Virus record (IMG/VR): IMGVR_UViG_3300045988_169817
Direction: 5' to 3' (one strand)
Length of the DNA stretch: 50,908 nucleotides
Source of the DNA: a virus
The notes under the pieces were generated by a model. That model did no database searches, was not told the origin of the DNA, and worked only from the letters and a program-made list of their open reading frames with translations. How positions within the stretch are numbered: the stretch's first letter is position 1; every line of letters starts with the position of its first letter. Below, piece after piece: positions 3,457 through 47,062 of the stretch. Position numbers and translations under genes: made by a program.

Positions 3457-3488
3457 GGCAGACTACAGAAAAGTAGTCTGCCTTTTTT
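3457..3488. terminator. Convergent (bidirectional) terminator hairpin
   Basis: GGCAGACTAC-agaaaa-GTAGTCTGCC followed by TTTTTT. It sits between the convergent genes ending at 3434 and 3487. Confidence 0.8.
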
Positions 3489-4209
3489 ACATTAAGCTTT
3501 CATCTTCTTCTATAACGAGAGAATAGCCGACTCCTCGTAGGGTTTCTATAGTTACTCGGCTATCCATTTTAAGCATATCTCGCAACATACACATATGGAC
3601 GTCTAAGCTACGTTTATTAAAGTAGTTATCATCAGTCCATACTTGTTGCATAAGTATTTTCCTAGGTAATATTTCGTTTTTATAGGCACATAGTAAAGCA
3701 AGAACTTGGCTTTGTTTACGATTAAGCCGTGTTTTTACACTGCCTATAGTAAGAAATTTATCTACTGTATTAAACAAGTAATCGCCTATCTCATAAGATG
3801 GCTCTATATTTCTTACTCGCACACCACATCTTTTCAAAACGGCTTTTATTCTTCTTATAAGCTCCTCAATGTTATATGGCCTTATAACGTAATCATCTGC
3901 ACCTTCATCAAATGCTTCAATAACATACTCATATCGGGCCTTGTCTGATACCATTATTACCGGTATTTTATCATTTGATTTGCGCAAAAATTTTAATGGC
4001 TTTAGCATCATAGAGGCATCTGTTGTTTTATAATGGCTTAATATGCATAAGTCATAATTCTTTTCTCTGATTTTGATTAGTATATCATTCTCAGTTGAGG
4101 TTATTACTTGAAAGCCGTTATACACCAAATAATCTACCAGGATTCTACAGTCTTCATCTTGATAGATTAAAATTCTTGGCAATGCTAATTTAGTGTTATT
4201 ACTTTTCAT
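3487..4209 (-). CDS. OmpR/PhoB-family response regulator (receiver plus winged-helix domain) with a degenerate phosphorylation site
   Basis: The receiver aligns by eye to PhoB (RILIYQDED, IPVIMVS, GADDYVIRPY, RRIKAVLKR). The C-terminus has the trans_reg_C pattern (LDVHMCMLRDML...TLRGVGYSL). Ser58 occupies the phospho-acceptor Asp position (YDLCILS), and Arg replaces the conserved Lys. Confidence 0.85.
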   Translation of the reverse strand: MKSNNTKLALPRILIYQDEDCRILVDYLVYNGFQVITSTENDILIKIREKNYDLCILSHYKTTDASMMLKPLKFLRKSNDKIPVIMVSDKARYEYVIEAFDEGADDYVIRPYNIEELIRRIKAVLKRCGVRVRNIEPSYEIGDYLFNTVDKFLTIGSVKTRLNRKQSQVLALLCAYKNEILPRKILMQQVWTDDNYFNKRSLDVHMCMLRDMLKMDSRVTIETLRGVGYSLVIEEDESLM

Positions 4210-5580: not shown

Positions 5581-6261
5581 TTATAAGTTTTTAAGTTGTT
5601 GTCTATAATACTTTTCTTGCATATCGAAATGTCTCTTATATATATGCAAATCATGAGCAAAATGGTAATAAGTGCCTATTGGCACACCGAGCTCATCTGC
5701 GACTAATTGTTGAAGCTTTGTCCAACAATACTGGTCATTGCAAAAGCCATAAACCAAATCATTGCTTCGCATAGTTACACACATATCAAGAGTTCCTATT
5801 TGAGGCTTAATATCAAATCCGACTGATAGCGTACAAGGTGTATCATACTTATAGTCATCTTTTTCTTTGCCGTCAAATATAGTAAACCAAGCTTGACGAG
5901 TATCTTTATTCTCTTTAAGCTGTTCAATGCACTTTGCCAATTGACCATTGCGAGTCCATTGCCAACCGTAATTAGAATTGACAATGTTATCTCCACCGTG
6001 CATTTTATTCCACGTAGGAGCATGTTTTTTAATTTCAGCTACACTCCTATCTCCAGACATATACCAGGCATATTCGTACTCTGCGTATCGTTCACTAAAT
6101 TTACGCCATTCTGTTGTTATGGTGCGTTGCTGAGGATTAAGTAAATAAAAACCAACATTGTAAACAGCTTTTGTTCCAACGTTAGTATTTACTCCTTGGC
6201 CCATTATAAAACCATATAAATCCTCAAAGGCTTCTGTTGCATTTTTATAAGCTATATTCAT
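5581..6261 (-). CDS. ThyA-family pyrimidine hydroxymethylase, predicted to be a deoxycytidylate (dCMP) hydroxymethylase
   Basis: Resembles T4 gp42 by eye in NSNYGW, the catalytic Cys context DTPCT, MRSNDLVYGFCNDQYCW and HIYKRHF. Asp occupies the position equivalent to T4 Asp179 and E. coli ThyA Asn177. The ORF-track start at 6276 is TTG, and the first ATG is at 6261. Confidence 0.7.
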   Translation of the reverse strand: MNIAYKNATEAFEDLYGFIMGQGVNTNVGTKAVYNVGFYLLNPQQRTITTEWRKFSERYAEYEYAWYMSGDRSVAEIKKHAPTWNKMHGGDNIVNSNYGWQWTRNGQLAKCIEQLKENKDTRQAWFTIFDGKEKDDYKYDTPCTLSVGFDIKPQIGTLDMCVTMRSNDLVYGFCNDQYCWTKLQQLVADELGVPIGTYYHFAHDLHIYKRHFDMQEKYYRQQLKNL

Positions 6262-6268
6262 AACTATT

Positions 6269-6400
6269 TTACCCAAATTTGTTTAACGCTCCAATCATAT
6301 CTTTGCCGAGATATTTTAAAAGTCTCAGCCTGTTTGTAGGTATTAAAGTATCTTAGTAATTTACCTACTGAGTCAAATACTCCATATTGCATTTTTCCCA
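6269..6400 (-). CDS. Possible small ORF (43 aa, MGKMQYGVFDS...)
   Basis: It fills the gap between 6403 and 6261 and starts 3 nt after the upstream stop codon. It is below the ORF-track length cutoff. Confidence 0.3.
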
Positions 6401-6402
6401 TA

Positions 6403-7125
6403 CTAATCCCATCCTCCTATATTATACATCGATAACTCATCATCTTTAGGTATTGTATTTCTAATAGCGTCAAGTAACTTTTTCTTTGATTCTCTACAGA
6501 GGTTATAGCCATAACCCTTATACCGGTATGAGCGCTCCCAAGTAGATATTGGAAAAGGAATTTTGTTGTCTAGTACTAAGCGCTTTTGATGCAAGTGCTC
6601 AAAAAAATCTCTATGATATAGTAGCATATATTCCCAATGCCATTTATCATCGTTGTCATCAAAAGGAAAATCTTCACTCTCATCAGCGGGCATACTAGTC
6701 ACATTATCAGGAACTATCTCCTTGTAATATGCAAACTTAGTAATGGTAAAGTCGAAATTATTCAGAATATCTTCAGGCGTTCCAAATACTGATTCAATAA
6801 GTTCTACCCACATAGAACTGCCTTTTTCTTGAAAGGCACAAGCCTTGTTATTTCTATATTTAAAAGTCCATGTGCCCTCTTCAACTAAGCTATTAAAGTG
6901 TGCAACAGCCTCACCAAAATCAGATTGATTGTGAAAGAAAATATCTACATCTTTCACTTTTTCTCTTGAGAGAATGTTCTTAAAACAACCGCCAGCTATA
7001 AAGCCTTTATGACCTTGCATATATTGGTCTAAAAATCTGAGAAACCAAAAGTTTTCAGGTATATTTTTTATATATTTATTCTCCACATTATTCGCAGCAT
7101 CTGCTATTTTTTCTTTGTCTGTCAT
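6403..7125 (-). CDS. Pol-beta superfamily nucleotidyltransferase with a CCA-adding/poly(A) polymerase-like head motif
   Basis: AGGCFKNILSREKVKDVDIFF matches the G[GS]-x(9-13)-DxD minimal nucleotidyltransferase signature. Confidence 0.6.
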   Translation of the reverse strand: MTDKEKIADAANNVENKYIKNIPENFWFLRFLDQYMQGHKGFIAGGCFKNILSREKVKDVDIFFHNQSDFGEAVAHFNSLVEEGTWTFKYRNNKACAFQEKGSSMWVELIESVFGTPEDILNNFDFTITKFAYYKEIVPDNVTSMPADESEDFPFDDNDDKWHWEYMLLYHRDFFEHLHQKRLVLDNKIPFPISTWERSYRYKGYGYNLCRESKKKLLDAIRNTIPKDDELSMYNIGGWD

Positions 7126-7586
7126 GCTATCAACTTATTAGTATTACTGTTATAAACTCTAAACAACAACTCTTCAGCTTCCTCATTCATGGCATTGCAA
7201 ATACTTATTGCTTCTTCCATAGATAAGCCTGTAAGTTCTTCATCGTCATCATTTACTGCAATTTCGCCAGTTATAACTCTAACATCAAATGAGTTTGCAG
7301 AAGCAAAAGCCTTAGCAGCATCAAGAGCCTGTATACAAATATAATGTACAGCATCCCAGTATATATAAGACAATGTGCTTGTATCTTTTAATATATCGAC
7401 ATAAAGCTCTCTCAACTTTTCTGGCTTAAACCATCCATGCTCATCCATTCGTCTATATTCAGCAAGCCATCTGCCATATCCATTTGTGGCCTTAAATCTG
7501 TTGGCATAAACAGCCACAAATCTAAGAAATTGGTCTGTATAAACGACTTGTGGAATTTCAACTGTTTTCTTCTTGAGCTGTTTCAT
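7122..7586 (-). CDS. Hypothetical protein (154 aa)
   Basis: ATG-initiated ORF with a 4-nt overlap onto the downstream gene. Confidence 0.55.
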   Translation of the reverse strand: MKQLKKKTVEIPQVVYTDQFLRFVAVYANRFKATNGYGRWLAEYRRMDEHGWFKPEKLRELYVDILKDTSTLSYIYWDAVHYICIQALDAAKAFASANSFDVRVITGEIAVNDDDEELTGLSMEEAISICNAMNEEAEELLFRVYNSNTNKLIA

Positions 7587-8202: not shown

Positions 8203-8580
8203 CTACACTATTTTAACAAGTTCCTTAGCTGCTGTTTCTACGGCTCTAGCAAGTCTATGTTCAACTTCTGGACTTATAAGGCTGTAAACTCCTTCTTTTT
8301 CAAAAGCGTCAGCCATGATAGCTCCAATTTTTGAAAGCTTAGGATTAGAAGCGTTAATGCCATGCTTATCCATAAGTTCTTCGTTGTACTCATACTTAAT
8401 ACCTCTGCCATTTTCTACAGGAACGAGCTTAGCTATTTCTGCATGAGTATTTGACTTTCTGCTCGGAACAGTGATAATAATCTCCTGATTGGTTGCCCTG
8501 CACATATCTGTGCACATTTCCATTACTTCATTGAAGTTGCGCTTAAACTCTCTTGGAGTTACTGAAATTAAACTTTTCAT
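8203..8580 (-). CDS. Hypothetical protein (125 aa)
   Basis: ATG-initiated ORF. The N-terminus has a faint Phd/YefM-like pattern, which is not enough for a call. Confidence 0.5.
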   Translation of the reverse strand: MKSLISVTPREFKRNFNEVMEMCTDMCRATNQEIIITVPSRKSNTHAEIAKLVPVENGRGIKYEYNEELMDKHGINASNPKLSKIGAIMADAFEKEGVYSLISPEVEHRLARAVETAAKELVKIV

Positions 8581-8617: not shown

Positions 8618-9439
8618 TTACATTAAATCGTCATCGAATAAACTTGGTTGCTCAGTGGCTTTAGGAGCAACTTTTACATCTCCAGGCTTACGCTTTAATA
8701 CCCAAAGAGTATTACGTGAAGCATCCGGGAACATAGGAGCCATGATATTGGCAATGAGGTTTGGGTCATAATACTCTTTAAGAGCATCAAACATTTTCTG
8801 CTGCCAATCATTCATCAGTGGCTTATAGTCTTTAGCCGAAGCAAATGTGCCGAACTTATTTACTATATCAAAATGTTTCAACAATATGCCTTCAAGCTCC
8901 CAATGGTCAAACTCTTGCACATCAACTCCGCGGCCATCGCCTGAGTCATAAATATGATTACCAGCTGCTCCTACAGATGGGTCATAGTTTGGAGTTGAAA
9001 GGTAATAAGTAGCGTCATTATTGCCACAAGCCTTAAAGTTCTCCAAAAATGCATCTGCATTCTGTTTGCCAACATGCTCAAGTACTTCAAATGCACAAAC
9101 CTTATCAGCATTAAATTGGCTAAAATCCATATAATTTTTAACAAGGTCTGCTACATAAAAATGAGCCCAAGGTACATCTGCATACTTTTCAGCAGCTTGT
9201 TGAATTGCTTTTTTGCGAATATCGATACCGATATATTCTTTCTGCTTAAACTTGTTTCGGTATAATACCTCAAGCAAGTTAGCAACTCCACAGCCAAAAT
9301 CAACAATGGACTCGCCAACCTTGGCTTCTTTCAAGATATGAGCCCATCGCAGATAATGCGCAAATTGGTCTCTGTGGAATACGTGACGCTCAAAGGCCTG
9401 GTCAGGTCTGAGGTCTGTTGTGTTATACACTTTTGCCAT
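8618..9439 (-). CDS. Class I SAM-dependent methyltransferase, substrate unknown
   Basis: Motif I VDFGCGVANLL, acidic loop IGIDI, and FEVLEHV. Confidence 0.75.
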   Translation of the reverse strand: MAKVYNTTDLRPDQAFERHVFHRDQFAHYLRWAHILKEAKVGESIVDFGCGVANLLEVLYRNKFKQKEYIGIDIRKKAIQQAAEKYADVPWAHFYVADLVKNYMDFSQFNADKVCAFEVLEHVGKQNADAFLENFKACGNNDATYYLSTPNYDPSVGAAGNHIYDSGDGRGVDVQEFDHWELEGILLKHFDIVNKFGTFASAKDYKPLMNDWQQKMFDALKEYYDPNLIANIMAPMFPDASRNTLWVLKRKPGDVKVAPKATEQPSLFDDDLM

Positions 9440-10949: not shown

Positions 10950-11324
10950 TTATTGCCCTTCTGGATATTCTATTCGCAGTAATTCTTTGCAAAATTGAAT
11001 AACTTGCTCATAGTTATTATATGCAGTTTGAGTAATAATTCTCCGCTGAAGTATCGTTAGTTTATTTTTAATAATAAACTTATTTATGCTAAGAGAGAGA
11101 GCTTTATCATTGCATCTTCTTTTATCTCCTAACTGAATAGCTAATTGAGCATAATGAATACATTTCTTTATATCCTGCGCTCCATTTTTAGCTTTATACC
11201 TACTAATATATTTTATAATACATCCTTGTATAAAAGAGCATCTTAAAGCAGTTATAAGCTCTATTGGTTGCATAGCCATATCTTTATAATAGCTACCACC
11301 TATTTGTACATCTGTTGCTTTCAT
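10950..11324 (-). CDS. DUF3310-like phage protein
   Basis: The N-terminal GGSYYKD...QPIELI pattern is typical of DUF3310 as I recall it. Confidence 0.5.
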   Translation of the reverse strand: MKATDVQIGGSYYKDMAMQPIELITALRCSFIQGCIIKYISRYKAKNGAQDIKKCIHYAQLAIQLGDKRRCNDKALSLSINKFIIKNKLTILQRRIITQTAYNNYEQVIQFCKELLRIEYPEGQ

Positions 11325-16399: not shown

Positions 16400-18373
16400 T
16401 CATTTTTGGTAAAAATCCATAACTCCTCCGTCCGCATTCAAAGGCAAGTCCTGTGCCCACAAAGGGGGTGTTGACATGATTTTTACCAGATTATCATACC
16501 ACAATTGAGCATTCTCTTCTGGAACTTCTGTTATAACTTCGTCATGGATTGAGCCAACAATCCCATATCCAGCTTTTTCCATTCTAAGCATAGCATCGCC
16601 TAATAAATCTCTTGATACCGCTTGAACTATATTCTCGGTCAGCTTACCGCCGTAGGTATCTATGCTTATCCACTGTTTGGTTGTCTGGTCAATACCTTTG
16701 TAGCAAAGACTGCGAATAGGCATAGTGGAACGCCCTACATACTTATCTTTGAATTCTGGTTTATAGTAAAATAGTTTTCTGCCTACAGGCAATTCTATTG
16801 TCATAAATTCACCGTCACAATCAAATATAACATTTTTACTAGTGCACTTAACGGCTCTATGATAACGCACGGCCTCTTTGGAGGCTTCATCAATCTCTTT
16901 CCACATATCAACTATAGAAGGATTGGCCATACGCCATTTGCGCACAAGTGACATCATTTCAGTATCTGAGAGGCCCATCTTATCACCTCCCATGCGCTTT
17001 AATGCTCCAAGGCCTCCTTCATAACCAAGAGCTAATTCAGATATTTTTGATTTGTCACGAAGTACCGAGCCTTTTTTAATTTCAGACTTCGGGACTCCAA
17101 ACATCTTTTCTCCAGTTGCTTCATATATCTTACCATCGCCATGAAATACATCTAATCGCCATTTTTCATCGGCAAGCCAAGATATTACTCTTGCTTCAAT
17201 TGCAGAAAAGTCTGCAACTGCGTATTTCATATTCTTTGGCGGTATAAGAGCTGTTCTTACTAGCTGGGACAAAATATCTGCAACATCATCATACATCATC
17301 TCAACCGACTCCCAATCACGTGCTCTAATCATTTCACGTGGTACTTCTATATGTGATATATGGTTTTTTGATAAGTTCTGCAATTGCAATAGCCTACCTG
17401 CCCATCGTCCAGTTCTATTTGCACCATAGAATTGAAATGTACCACGGACTCTATGGTCTTTCATGGCACAATTAAGCATAGCATAATACTTCTTAATAGA
17501 CGTTTTTGAGAGCTTTTTGCGTATATTAAGCAACTCGATAACATCTGGATAATCTACAAGCTCTTTCATTAAATCAGGCATTGTTTCCTTTGAAAGTGAC
17601 ATAACAACACATCCTGTTGTCTTTTCAATCCATTGCCTGATTTGAACAGGCGAGTTTGGATTTTCAAGCCCTGTTAGCTGTTGAGCATGTTGCGTTAAGA
17701 TAGAAGTATATGTGTTATCTACTGCGATAGCAGACTCTGCTAATTCCATATCAACCAAAATACCTCTATCGTTTATATTCTGGTCAAGCACATACATCTT
17801 GCGCTCAATATCAGGAATGATATATGCCTCTAATCTCTTAAATATCTCACGCTCTGCAAGTACGTCATACTTGTTATATTCCTTATACATTTCCCACTTT
17901 TCAGGAGCATGCTCAGGATAATTCCGAGTACGCATGCCATTAACTCGAGTTGCTTTGCATGGGCATGAGAAGTATTTAATAAGCGCTTTACCAGTATCTA
18001 GCTTTTTATCTGTAAGATTAAGAGCCTTTGATACTCCGTCCAAAGAAAGCGGTAAACCACAATACGCAGCTTTTACAGAGGTACAATACCACTGTTCTGC
18101 TGGAACATTATACCCTATACGCTTAAAGCTCAAGCGCTCAAATACTGCATTATGTGCCACTTTTACACAATCCGGGTCAAGCAAAGCTTCTTCAAACTCT
18201 TCAGGCATTTCTTCACCTTGAGCCAAATCTACTATCTTTACCGGGCTATCATCTAAAGCATATCCTATTATAAGAATTTCAAAGTCTGGTGACTCAATAT
18301 ACTTATAAGCTCCAGACTCTTTAATATCTACAGATGAATATGTTTCAACGTCTATAAAAAGATTTTTTGTCAT
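16400..18373 (-). CDS. Family A DNA polymerase with a 3'-5' exonuclease domain
   Basis: Exo I IDVETYS, pol motif A VADFSAIEARV, motif B RDKSKISELALGYEGG, motif C GSIHDEV. Confidence 0.9.
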   Translation of the reverse strand: MTKNLFIDVETYSSVDIKESGAYKYIESPDFEILIIGYALDDSPVKIVDLAQGEEMPEEFEEALLDPDCVKVAHNAVFERLSFKRIGYNVPAEQWYCTSVKAAYCGLPLSLDGVSKALNLTDKKLDTGKALIKYFSCPCKATRVNGMRTRNYPEHAPEKWEMYKEYNKYDVLAEREIFKRLEAYIIPDIERKMYVLDQNINDRGILVDMELAESAIAVDNTYTSILTQHAQQLTGLENPNSPVQIRQWIEKTTGCVVMSLSKETMPDLMKELVDYPDVIELLNIRKKLSKTSIKKYYAMLNCAMKDHRVRGTFQFYGANRTGRWAGRLLQLQNLSKNHISHIEVPREMIRARDWESVEMMYDDVADILSQLVRTALIPPKNMKYAVADFSAIEARVISWLADEKWRLDVFHGDGKIYEATGEKMFGVPKSEIKKGSVLRDKSKISELALGYEGGLGALKRMGGDKMGLSDTEMMSLVRKWRMANPSIVDMWKEIDEASKEAVRYHRAVKCTSKNVIFDCDGEFMTIELPVGRKLFYYKPEFKDKYVGRSTMPIRSLCYKGIDQTTKQWISIDTYGGKLTENIVQAVSRDLLGDAMLRMEKAGYGIVGSIHDEVITEVPEENAQLWYDNLVKIMSTPPLWAQDLPLNADGGVMDFYQK

Positions 18374-46273: not shown

Positions 46274-47062
46274 TTACTTTATTAAGTTTTCACGTATAAT
46301 CAGATATGCTTCACGACTTACAGGCACATTAGGAATAATGCCTGTTTGGAGTTGTTGCTGCTCAGGTAGATTAAGCTGCATTTGACCTTTTCCAAACACA
46401 CGGTCCCAAAGCTTCTCAATTGTTTCTATATTGCCAAGTTTTGTATCTTCTTGCAAGCGCTTTATAACTGTTTTGATAACGATTGGTATCTTTTTATTGT
46501 TATACAGAGCCGCAAGTTGTGCCTCATTGCACGTTAACAAACAAGCCAATAAATTAGCCGTGTCCTGCTTTGTAAGTTGGACACTTAAATTGATATTAAG
46601 GCTAGTAAGAAGCTTTGTTATTTCAGGCCTTGATGCTCCTTGTAACTGAAGTGCTGAGCGTATAGCTGATGAATATGAACCTCTGCCCGAGTCATGGCGC
46701 TCTGCTAACTCAGTTGCTTTAAGTGGCTCTACAGTCTGAGCCTCAAGTGCCTCAATAGCCTCAACTCGTTTTTGCTGCTCTGCAATACGTTTGGCTTGAA
46801 ACTCAGTTTGGCCATCTGGTATTTCTTCCAAGCCAAGTTCTTCTGCTAACGATCGGCGTTTTTCTTGTTTAGCTTGAAGGTTTTTAAGCTTCTGCTTTTC
46901 AAGATACTTAATACGAGCCAATTCCTTTGCATCGTATTTTGATTTAATGCGCGTGGCCTCTTGTTCTACGAGTTTGGATGTGTCTGGATTAGACATTCCA
47001 GGAACTATTGGCCTGTTTGGCAATATATCTGCTAATTTCTGTGCTATTTTATCTGTTTTCAT
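46274..47062 (-). CDS. Putative terminase small subunit (262 aa)
   Basis: Position immediately upstream of terL only. Confidence 0.35.
   Translation of the reverse strand: MKTDKIAQKLADILPNRPIVPGMSNPDTSKLVEQEATRIKSKYDAKELARIKYLEKQKLKNLQAKQEKRRSLAEELGLEEIPDGQTEFQAKRIAEQQKRVEAIEALEAQTVEPLKATELAERHDSGRGSYSSAIRSALQLQGASRPEITKLLTSLNINLSVQLTKQDTANLLACLLTCNEAQLAALYNNKKIPIVIKTVIKRLQEDTKLGNIETIEKLWDRVFGKGQMQLNLPEQQQLQTGIIPNVPVSREAYLIIRENLIK

Follow-up and report, generated by a model that had tools for sequence, protein, structure and literature searches.

A predicted T4-type dCMP 5-hydroxymethylase and its linked methyltransferase in a gut Bacteroidota phage suggest a possible cytosine-modification cassette

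Introduction

The deoxycytidine monophosphate (dCMP) hydroxymethylase gp42 of bacteriophage T4 (PDB 1b5e, 6a9b) has the fold of the thymidylate synthase ThyA, and its partners in T4 are a MazG-like dCTPase (gp56), a deoxynucleoside monophosphate (dNMP) kinase (gp1), and glucosyltransferases. We compared this and related systems with a ThyA-family gene at positions 5581 to 6261 (minus strand) of IMG/VR virus record IMGVR_UViG_3300045988_169817. The whole stretch of DNA that was analyzed, 50,908 nucleotides long, is called the window here. The gene is a predicted dCMP 5-hydroxymethylase gene, and it lies in an operon that also holds a class I S-adenosylmethionine (SAM)-dependent methyltransferase gene.

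Substrate and product choice in this superfamily has been tied to a small number of residues. With Asp at position 177 (Escherichia coli ThyA numbering), thymidylate synthase takes on dCMP methylase activity (Liu and Santi 1992; Hardy and Nalivaika 1992). At the third position before the catalytic Cys (Cys-3), an acidic residue goes with hydroxymethyl products and a hydrophobic one with methyl products, as with Asp145 in T4 and Leu143 in E. coli (PMC6400193, PMC13326640). T4 Asp145 activates the substrate water, and the D145N mutation abolishes activity, while Ser94-x-Tyr96 holds catalytic waters, and the S94N and Y96F mutants are inactive (PMC6400193). The lack of the ThyA C-terminal tail has also been described for T4 gp42 (PMC6400193). 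At position 169, folate enzymes carry Asp, whereas all 5-hydroxy-dCMP synthases tested carry Asn (PMC13326640). The synthases were described in 2026, when RB69 gp48, long called a dCMP hydroxymethylase, and its relatives were reported to be flavin- and O2-dependent 5-hydroxy-dCMP synthases with Asp177 (PMC13326640). MilA, from mildiomycin biosynthesis (PDB 5b6d, 5jnh), owes its preference for CMP to Lys133 and Ala176, which are replaced by Arg and Ser in deoxynucleotide enzymes, and the A176S/K133R double mutant turns it to dCMP (PMC5175136).

Stenotrophomonas phage AXL3 encodes a dCMP deaminase (gp27), a thymidylate synthase homolog (gp28), a thymidylate kinase (gp29), a nucleoside triphosphate (NTP) pyrophosphatase (gp30), and a methyltransferase (gp31). 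AXL3 DNA was cut by 2 of 37 restriction enzymes, both with A/T-only sites, and resisted the other 35, and gp28 was read by its authors as an ordinary thymidylate synthase making dTMP (PMC7504290).

Results

Sequence and structure of the predicted hydroxymethylase

On the minus strand, the open reading frame (ORF) spans 5581 to 6276 and begins with TTG at 6276; starting instead from the in-frame ATG at 6261 yields a protein of 226 amino acids (aa), the same length as its database homologs. The gene, with the features on which its name is based, is as follows.

5581..6261, minus strand: ThyA-family dCMP 5-hydroxymethylase (predicted 5-hydroxymethyl-dCMP [5-hmdCMP] synthase), 226 aa; PF00303, determinant signature, AlphaFold2 (AF2) model

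No exact copy of the protein was found in public assemblies with either start codon, and genomic context was taken from relatives whose hydroxymethylase is 88 to 92% identical.

The protein matched Pfam family PF00303 (E = 3.8e-24; 85.7 bits against a cutoff of 24.3) and phrog_160 (E = 1.9e-44). In both PHROG and NCBIfam, the family is called "thymidylate synthase." However, the NCBIfam thymidylate synthase equivalogs scored 19 to 74 bits against cutoffs of 108 to 576 (74 against 327, for example), indicating that the protein is apparently no ordinary thymidylate synthase. Among solved structures, a sequence search ranked the CMP hydroxymethylase MilA (E = 5e-16) and T4 gp42 (E = 3e-15) ahead of the best thymidylate synthase (E = 4e-12), with E. 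coli ThyA at 8e-7. This agrees with the initial annotation, made from the sequence alone, which had judged the protein closer to T4 gp42 than to a thymidylate synthase; the segments that it quoted as shared (NSNYGW, DTPCT, MRSNDLVYGFCNDQYCW, and HIYKRHF) are all in the translation. The AF2 model had a predicted local distance difference test (pLDDT) score of 89.1. Foldseek placed MilA first (template modeling [TM] score, 0.82 to 0.86), the HY126 dCMP hydroxylase structures 9iqc and 9iqu second (0.76 to 0.79), and thymidylate synthases at 0.65 to 0.73, so that both PF00303 and the structural search assign the protein to the ThyA fold.

Substrate and product determinants

Determinant residues were read from an HMMER alignment to T4 gp42 and MAFFT alignments with E. 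coli ThyA (identical to PDB 1aob), MilA, and the GenBank sequences of T4 gp42, RB69 gp48, and SPO1 gp29. Invariance was scored in the 120 closest database homologs. In these alignments, the Asp of FCND (Asp176) stands opposite T4 Asp179 and E. coli Asn177, as the initial annotation had proposed. Asn at this position, which would have spoken against a cytosine substrate, was not found, with Asp present in the window enzyme and in 120 of 120 homologs. The initial annotation also cited mutagenesis in which this residue switches specificity between dUMP and dCMP. Asp does mark a cytosine substrate, but it also occurs in dCMP methylases and in flavin-dependent 5-hydroxy-dCMP synthases, and Asp177 alone therefore does not imply 5-hydroxymethylcytosine (5-hmC).

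The other determinants were the same as those of T4 gp42. The catalytic residues Cys143 (in DTPCT) and Glu63 correspond to T4 C148 and E60, and both are invariant in the 120 homologs. Cys-3 is Asp140 (YDTPC), with Asp there in 120/120 homologs. The Ser-x-Tyr water-binding motif, which together with the Asp at Cys-3 forms the hydroxymethylation signature, lies in NSNYGW; this segment is letter-identical in the window enzyme and T4 gp42, and S96 and Y98 did not vary in alignment A4. At position 169, the window enzyme and all 120 homologs carry Asp; the Asn published for RB69 gp48 is seen there in the same alignment. The sugar determinants are Arg at R126 and Ser at S167 (E. coli numbering), again invariant in the 120 homologs. 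The protein ends 20 residues after His207 (30 in T4 gp42 and 57 in ThyA) and thus lacks the C-terminal tail by which thymidylate synthase closes its active site. All tested determinants were also invariant in 72 gut-phage loci. The residues at E58, Cys-3, C146, 147, S167, D169, and 177, in this order, give the following signatures.

E. coli ThyA: ELCHSDN
T4 gp42: EDCTSDD
RB69 gp48: EECTSND
SPO1 gp29: EDCNSDN
Window enzyme (5581-6261): EDCTSDD, identical to T4 gp42 at every position

The comparison with T4 gp42 can be extended residue by residue. Glu60, Ser94-x-Tyr96, Asp145, Cys148, Thr149, Arg168-Ser169-Asn170-Asp171, Asp179, and His216/Tyr218 of T4 gp42 are identical in the window enzyme, which is 20 residues shorter and has Gln for the second phosphate-binding Arg. 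The core shared with both E. coli ThyA and SPO1 gp29, a dUMP hydroxymethylase, comprises Glu58, Tyr94, Arg126, Cys146, Arg166, Ser167, His207, and Tyr209. SPO1 gp29 also shares the Asp at Cys-3 and the Arg-Gln pair. Unlike the window enzyme, both have Asn177, the residue of uracil specificity, and E. coli ThyA alone has Leu143, His147, and the 57-residue C-terminal segment. MilA has the cytosine-specific Asp and the Asp at Cys-3 but prefers ribonucleotides and belongs to bacterial secondary metabolism rather than phage DNA synthesis. RB69 gp48, DLP3 gp80, and HY126 AfhB share the ThyA fold, Asp177, an acidic Cys-3, and dCMP as the substrate. In contrast to these flavin- and O2-dependent enzymes with Asn169, the window enzyme keeps the folate-type Asp169.

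The product of 5581-6261 thus agrees with the T4-type dCMP hydroxymethylases (EC 2.1.2.8) in every feature that can be read from sequence, and it is very probably a folate-dependent dCMP 5-hydroxymethylase of the ThyA superfamily that works like T4 gp42. The initial call of a dCMP hydroxymethylase therefore stands, and on firmer grounds than a single Asp, as all further published determinants match T4 gp42.

Several observations weigh against this assignment. Identity to T4 gp42 is ~26%. A phylogeny, which the initial annotation had put forward as a check, joined the clade of the window enzyme with T4 gp42, but this rough neighbor-joining tree gave a bootstrap of just 58%, too weakly resolved to speak to function. 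Because the tree with characterized enzymes is weakly resolved, the assignment rests on the determinant residues, and the signature rules themselves derive from a handful of characterized enzymes. The phosphate-binding E. coli R127 is replaced by Gln, as in the active SPO1 gp29, and the equivalent of R21 is not conserved.

Closest cultured relatives

The closest cultured relatives are the Bacteroides fragilis phages of the BF486P2 group (OP172667-OP172672). Their hydroxymethylase homolog BF486P2_00032 has 60% identity and the same signature, the DNA polymerases are 68% identical, and the operon order dut - x - x - hydroxymethylase is that of the window. BF486P2_00032 already stands in GenBank as "deoxycytidylate 5-hydroxymethyltransferase," a computational annotation. 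The novelty implied in the initial annotation for Bacteroidota siphovirus-like phages of this gene layout was therefore overstated, and the enzyme itself is anticipated by the automated annotation of cultured relatives. No experimental characterization of the BF486P2-group hydroxymethylase or DNA was found in the literature (most subscription journals lay outside this and the other literature searches reported here).

The BF486P2 group is without the SAM methyltransferase and has a second, divergent thymidylate synthase paralog, BF486P2_00027, in that slot (L001:9168-9929, 253 aa). In this paralog, Cys146, Asp at Cys-3, and Asp177 are kept, and Glu58, Trp80, and Gly173 are replaced by Leu, Ile, and Leu, respectively. 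Judging from these residues, its chemistry may differ.

Methyltransferase and its linkage to hydroxymethylase genes

The methyltransferase gene of the window is on the same strand as the hydroxymethylase gene.

8618..9439, minus strand: class I SAM-dependent methyltransferase, 273 aa, small-molecule/nucleotide type; Methyltransf_23/12/25/11 matches

Its AF2 model (pLDDT, 85.8) matched generic small-molecule and cap class I methyltransferases only, at TM scores of ~0.5 in both PDB and viral fold searches. The fold is of the small-molecule/nucleotide type and not of DNA methyltransferase architecture, and the matches are too generic for a substrate to be deduced from the structure. A sequence match to Hen1 was weak and covered the SAM-binding core only. 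Motifs specific to the family (HRD..H..RW, STP..D, AANH, and AP..P...RN..W) run over the full length, beyond the SAM site, and are common to AXL3 gp31 and others. AXL3 gp31 is homologous to the window methyltransferase over its full length, with ~28% identity.

Homologs of the methyltransferase were present in five phage records, including MW202510, MW202621, AXL3, and PW916. In the neighborhoods inspected (MW202510, MW202621, AXL3, and marine contigs L009 and L010), the gene is directly beside those for an NTP pyrophosphatase and a thymidylate synthase-family "pyrimidine hmase." We additionally scanned IMG/VR with a profile of the methyltransferase family and took two sets of 80 loci, one diverse (methyltransferase 43 to 78% identical to the MW202510 reference) and one of close gut relatives. 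A same-strand thymidylate synthase-family gene was found in all 69 diverse loci with more than ~1.6 kb of downstream flank; the other 11 end 1.6 kb or less from the methyltransferase gene. The linked gene was downstream by 0.4 to 5 kb in 55 loci and upstream by 1.8 to 6.6 kb in 14, and it carried the EDC[T/S]SDD signature in 67/69. Among the gut relatives, the gene and signature were both present in 72/72 loci with enough flank. The methyltransferase and a dCMP hydroxymethylase-type gene thus occurred together in 141/141 informative viral contigs; the sampled loci are interrelated, and these counts do not represent independent events. The linkage survives changes in gene order and the swap of non-homologous nucleoside triphosphatases (NTPases), MazG-like versus dUTPase-fold. 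In our reading, it is real and functional.

The composition of the cassette in the 69 diverse loci was as follows.

MazG-like NTPase: 54/69 loci
dUTPase-fold NTPase: 8/69 loci
Both NTPase types together: 0/69 loci
Thymidylate kinase-like gene: 56/69 loci
dCMP deaminase: 34/69 loci

With a dCTPase, hydroxymethylase, kinase, and deaminase present, the typical cassette resembles the T4 pre-replicative pathway plus a methyltransferase. AXL3 is of this kind. Its gp28 has the same EDCTSDD signature as the window enzyme (Asp177, Asp at Cys-3, and Asp169) at only ~26% identity, and, unlike the window, AXL3 has a MazG-like NTPase together with a kinase, a dCMP deaminase, and ThyX. The cytosine hydroxymethylase signature of gp28 and the presence of ThyX fit a DNA that is refractory at all tested G/C-containing sites. 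We found no literature report on the identity of the AXL3 modification.

In the window, a dUTPase-fold NTPase takes the slot held by the MazG-like NTP pyrophosphatase in other methyltransferase-hydroxymethylase cassettes. Seven of the eight dUTPase-type loci (L155, L159, and L169-L173) are, like the window, without a kinase and with a DUF6378 gene, and DUF6378 was not detected in the MazG-plus-kinase cassettes. This dUTPase-type, kinase-less cassette is kept across gut and marine phages.

The co-conserved methyltransferase suggests that the final base is perhaps not plain 5-hmC. 5-hmdCMP may be only an intermediate, and the enzyme at 8618-9439 may methylate hmC at the nucleotide level or within DNA, so that the virion base would be a methylated hmC, either through O-methylation to 5-methoxymethyl-cytosine or with another atom methylated. 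We consider this possible but short of probable. It would account for the methyltransferase standing beside a dCMP hydroxymethylase-type gene in MW202510, MW202621, AXL3, and L009/L010, for a linkage that holds in both sets of loci despite changes of gene order and NTPase, and for the signature in 67 of the 69 linked genes; the small-molecule/nucleotide fold and the resistance of AXL3 DNA to all 35 tested enzymes with G/C in their sites are also consistent with it. However, the argument is one of guilt by association among related loci, the substrate is not readable from fold matches at TM ~0.5, and the BF486P2 isolates have the divergent paralog in place of the methyltransferase. The chemistry is also without precedent, as no report of a methoxymethyl-cytosine (methylated hmC) base was found in the searchable literature.

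Operon and neighboring genes

At ~51 kb, the window is as long as related contigs (50 to 52 kb) and is therefore apparently a complete genome. The hydroxymethylase gene is within a long co-directional early operon (roughly 4.2 to 21.2 kb, minus strand) with genes for a family A DNA polymerase, a primase-helicase, an SNF2 helicase, a gp2.5-like single-stranded DNA-binding protein, and an exonuclease. The operon further includes the dUTPase-family gene, the class I SAM methyltransferase gene, DUF6378 and DUF3310 genes, and an OmpR-type response regulator gene at its end. The operon order is kept in contigs with an 88 to 92% identical hydroxymethylase, such as L002, L004, and L005, to which the following list refers.

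6264..6401, minus strand: small ORF directly upstream of the hydroxymethylase gene, 45 aa; an ORF of 45 to 53 aa is in the same place in L002 and L004
6403..7125, minus strand: nucleotidyltransferase-fold-like protein, 240 aa; phrog_4400 (E = 2.4e-64), weak match to phrog_1614 nucleotidyltransferase
7122..7586, minus strand: conserved protein between the dUTPase-family and hydroxymethylase genes, 154 aa; an ORF of 151 to 154 aa is kept in L002, L004, and L005
7706..8200, minus strand: trimeric dUTPase-family NTP pyrophosphatase, 164 aa, candidate dCMP/dUMP supplier; PF00692 (E = 2.2e-16), phrog_135
8203..8580, minus strand: conserved protein between the methyltransferase and dUTPase-family genes, 125 aa; an ORF of 124 to 128 aa is in the same place in L002 and L004
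10046..10351, minus strand: DUF6378 protein, 101 aa; PF19905 (E = 1.7e-11)
10950..11324, minus strand: DUF3310 protein, 124 aa, weak candidate for the missing nucleotide kinase; PF11753 (E = 9.5e-8)
16400..18373, minus strand: family A DNA polymerase, 657 aa, which would need to accept modified dCTP; phrog_17 (E = 6e-130)

PF00476 is recorded on the ortholog of the DNA polymerase in L004. The dUTPase-fold NTPase is in the slot that would correspond to the dCTPase of the T4-type pathway. It is matched by PDB dUTPases down to E = 2.6e-14, has an insertion of ~18 aa between motifs II and III, and has a motif V that reads RGDGALGSTG. Lys replaces the motif II Arg, and motif V has Leu instead of the usual uracil-stacking Phe. 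From these residues, the protein may be no plain dUTPase.

The nucleotidyltransferase-like protein at 6403-7125 has a GG...DxD-like motif and no Pfam family above threshold. Its slot is empty in the close relatives L002, L004, and L005, whose hydroxymethylase is 88 to 92% identical, and we therefore regard the gene as an accessory insertion rather than part of the cassette and rejected it as a pathway member. The conserved protein at 7122-7586 had no Pfam or PHROG match and no P-loop motif, and that at 8203-8580 had no family match in Pfam or PHROG.

Two further candidates for missing pathway functions were examined. DUF3310 also covers residues 122 to 184 of the T7 gp1.7 nucleotide kinase (E = 4.5e-23). 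However, the protein at 10950-11324 is without the N-terminal two thirds of gp1.7 and shares with it only the Pfam domain, with no pairwise similarity, making it a weak lead as the missing kinase. A reading of DUF6378 as a cryptic MazG-like dCTPase was not supported, with an hhalign probability of 9% and no Pfam or PDB link. PHROGs labels families related to DUF6378 "phosphofructokinase."

The response regulator (Response_reg and Trans_reg_C domains; 3487-4209, minus strand) is kept in L002, L004, and L005, and no cognate histidine kinase was seen for it. Positions 2 to 2238 of the window match MT838291, a 5.4-kb "Bacteriophage sp." fragment without annotation from human feces, at 92% DNA identity. 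Within the first 25 kb of the window, no other near-identical DNA was found in the phage collection.

Restriction-site composition

The sequence GATC occurs once in the 50.9 kb (at 46851), compared to 95.8 occurrences expected under a Markov model (observed/expected ratio [O/E], 0.01; z ~ -9.7). In the gut relatives, the observed and expected counts were 0 and 34 (L004), 0 and 19 (L005), and 18 and 37 (L002), and the part of BF486P2 examined had 4 against 55. The non-gut carriers of the cassette showed no depletion (O/E ~1). GATC is also depleted in T4 (O/E, 0.40) and RB69 (O/E, 0.13) despite full cytosine modification, and restriction-site avoidance is thus non-discriminating as a proxy for modification. 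The depletion points to GATC-specific host restriction pressure and says nothing on cytosine modification.

Several A/T-rich 6-bp palindromes were also depleted (observed versus expected): TTTAAA (7 versus 36), CATATG (3 versus 22), ATTAAT (9 versus 31), GATATC (3 versus 20.5), AATATT (25 versus 48.5), and GAATTC (3 versus 16). These have no C/G or have C/G at the outer positions only. Because the expected counts of G/C-rich palindromes are too low to test, no pattern of protected C-containing sites can be established.

Discussion

Taken as a whole, the best explanation of the locus is a T4-like enzyme within a cassette that leads to modified cytosine in the phage DNA, and we consider this explanation likely. 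The dUTPase-fold enzyme would cut deoxynucleoside triphosphates, possibly including dCTP, to dNMPs, and it may deplete dCTP. By homology with T4 gp42, Cys143 would attack C6 of dCMP, Asp176 would read and protonate the cytosine, Glu63 would open methylene-tetrahydrofolate, and the one-carbon unit would move to C5. The exocyclic methylene would then be taken by water activated by Asp140 rather than being reduced, giving 5-hydroxymethyl-dCMP and tetrahydrofolate. A kinase, either from the host or an unrecognized phage protein, would raise 5-hmdCMP to the triphosphate, the phage family A polymerase would build the modified dCTP into DNA, and the methyltransferase may then add a methyl group. The resulting phage DNA, with 5-hmC or a derivative of it, would hinder host nucleases.

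The step from 5-hmdCMP to 5-hmC-based virion DNA is less secure than the enzyme assignment, although we lean towards it. In the window, no P-loop dNMP kinase or thymidylate kinase homolog, no MazG-type dCTPase or T4 gp56 homolog, and no dCMP deaminase was recognized, and a kinase is present in most of the diverse loci described above. No glycosyltransferase or nucleoside diphosphate-sugar genes were found among the scanned genes (most genes of the structural module were outside the scan). The phage thus differs from T4 in its partners: it encodes a dUTPase-fold NTPase and a SAM methyltransferase, and neither a dedicated dNMP kinase nor a glucosyltransferase, both present in T4, was recognized among the scanned genes. 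The base specificity of the dUTPase-family protein is not readable from its sequence, and our literature search found no experiments on hmC in Bacteroides phages. All these points count against a 5-hmC-based genome. Because the window holds no recognizable dNMP kinase or dCTPase, a host or unrecognized kinase would be needed, and the nature of the DNA is something that we infer. The window also has no second thymidylate synthase paralog.

These gaps could instead mean that the enzyme is active but that the modified nucleotide is incorporated partly or never, with the gene mainly perturbing or tuning nucleotide pools. T4 needs its dedicated kinase gp1, and the window has no detectable P-loop kinase, MazG-like NTPase, or dCMP deaminase, while 56 of the 69 related cassettes do have a thymidylate kinase-like gene. 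The near absence of GATC (1 observed, 96 expected) indicates that the phage still dodges at least one restriction specificity by sequence, but T4 and RB69, with their fully modified cytosines, are depleted of GATC as well. Incorporation in the RB69 system rose greatly when the kinase was co-expressed, but traces were already incorporated with the RB69 or DLP3 synthase expressed on its own (PMC13326640). The conservation of the kinase-less, dUTPase-type cassette in gut and marine phages argues for a functional pathway with host or unrecognized kinases. We therefore regard a role confined largely to nucleotide pools as unlikely.

Other chemistries for the enzyme are much less probable than 5-hydroxymethylation of dCMP. 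A dCMP methyltransferase of the Xanthomonas phage XP12 kind, which would form 5-methyl-dCMP by the reductive methyl transfer of thymidylate synthase, would share Asp177, the residue that turns thymidylate synthase into a dCMP methylase. However, Cys-3 is Asp and not the hydrophobic Leu tied to methyl products, the Ser-x-Tyr water-binding motif is present, and the tail for hydride transfer is missing, which makes this reading, judged without an XP12 sequence in the alignments, very doubtful. A flavin-dependent 5-hydroxy-dCMP synthase of the RB69 gp48, DLP3 gp80, or HY126 AfhB type, with 5-hydroxycytosine as a handle for glycosylation, is no more credible. The HY126 structures are the second-best fold matches, and Asp177 and an acidic Cys-3 are held in common, but the diagnostic D169N change is missing in the window enzyme and its 120 homologs, and no glycosylation genes were recognized among the scanned genes. 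Finally, an ordinary thymidylate synthase, a dUMP hydroxymethylase, or a MilA/BcmA-like CMP (ribonucleotide) hydroxymethylase is highly improbable even with MilA as the top sequence and fold match and "thymidylate synthase" as the PHROG and NCBIfam family name, given Asp177 rather than the Asn of ThyA and SPO1 gp29, equivalog scores far below cutoff, Arg and Ser in place of Lys133 and Ala176, and a genomic context in a phage DNA replication operon.

A folate-dependent dCMP hydroxymethylase thus remains the preferred assignment. For the annotation of this superfamily, it follows from the determinants that Asp at the N177 position no longer equals 5-hmC and that the positions equivalent to L143 and D169 need to be read too.

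The part of this system that could be new is the methyltransferase-linked cassette. Tentatively, the methyltransferase, the hydroxymethylase-type enzyme, and the NTP pyrophosphatase may together form a widespread, undescribed cytosine-hypermodification cassette whose product would be a methylated hmC such as 5-methoxymethylcytosine. If so, this base would occur in an extremely abundant lineage of human gut Bacteroidota phages, in marine and freshwater phages, and in AXL3, where it would explain the resistance to restriction. The possible new DNA base is directly testable, as AXL3 is in culture, its DNA is refractory to restriction, and the methyltransferase linkage is strict.

The Bacteroidota phage lineage to which the window belongs is very common in human gut metagenomes. 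Clusters at 90% identity hold ~2,700 members for the hydroxymethylase and ~3,600 for the methyltransferase, and IMG/VR has more than 400 relatives. If its cytosines are modified, the recovery of these genomes by enzymatic library preparation would be affected, and their nanopore and PacBio reads would be altered. The modification would also shape the evasion of Bacteroides restriction, type IV, and CRISPR defenses and would determine the options for engineering these phages for microbiome editing.

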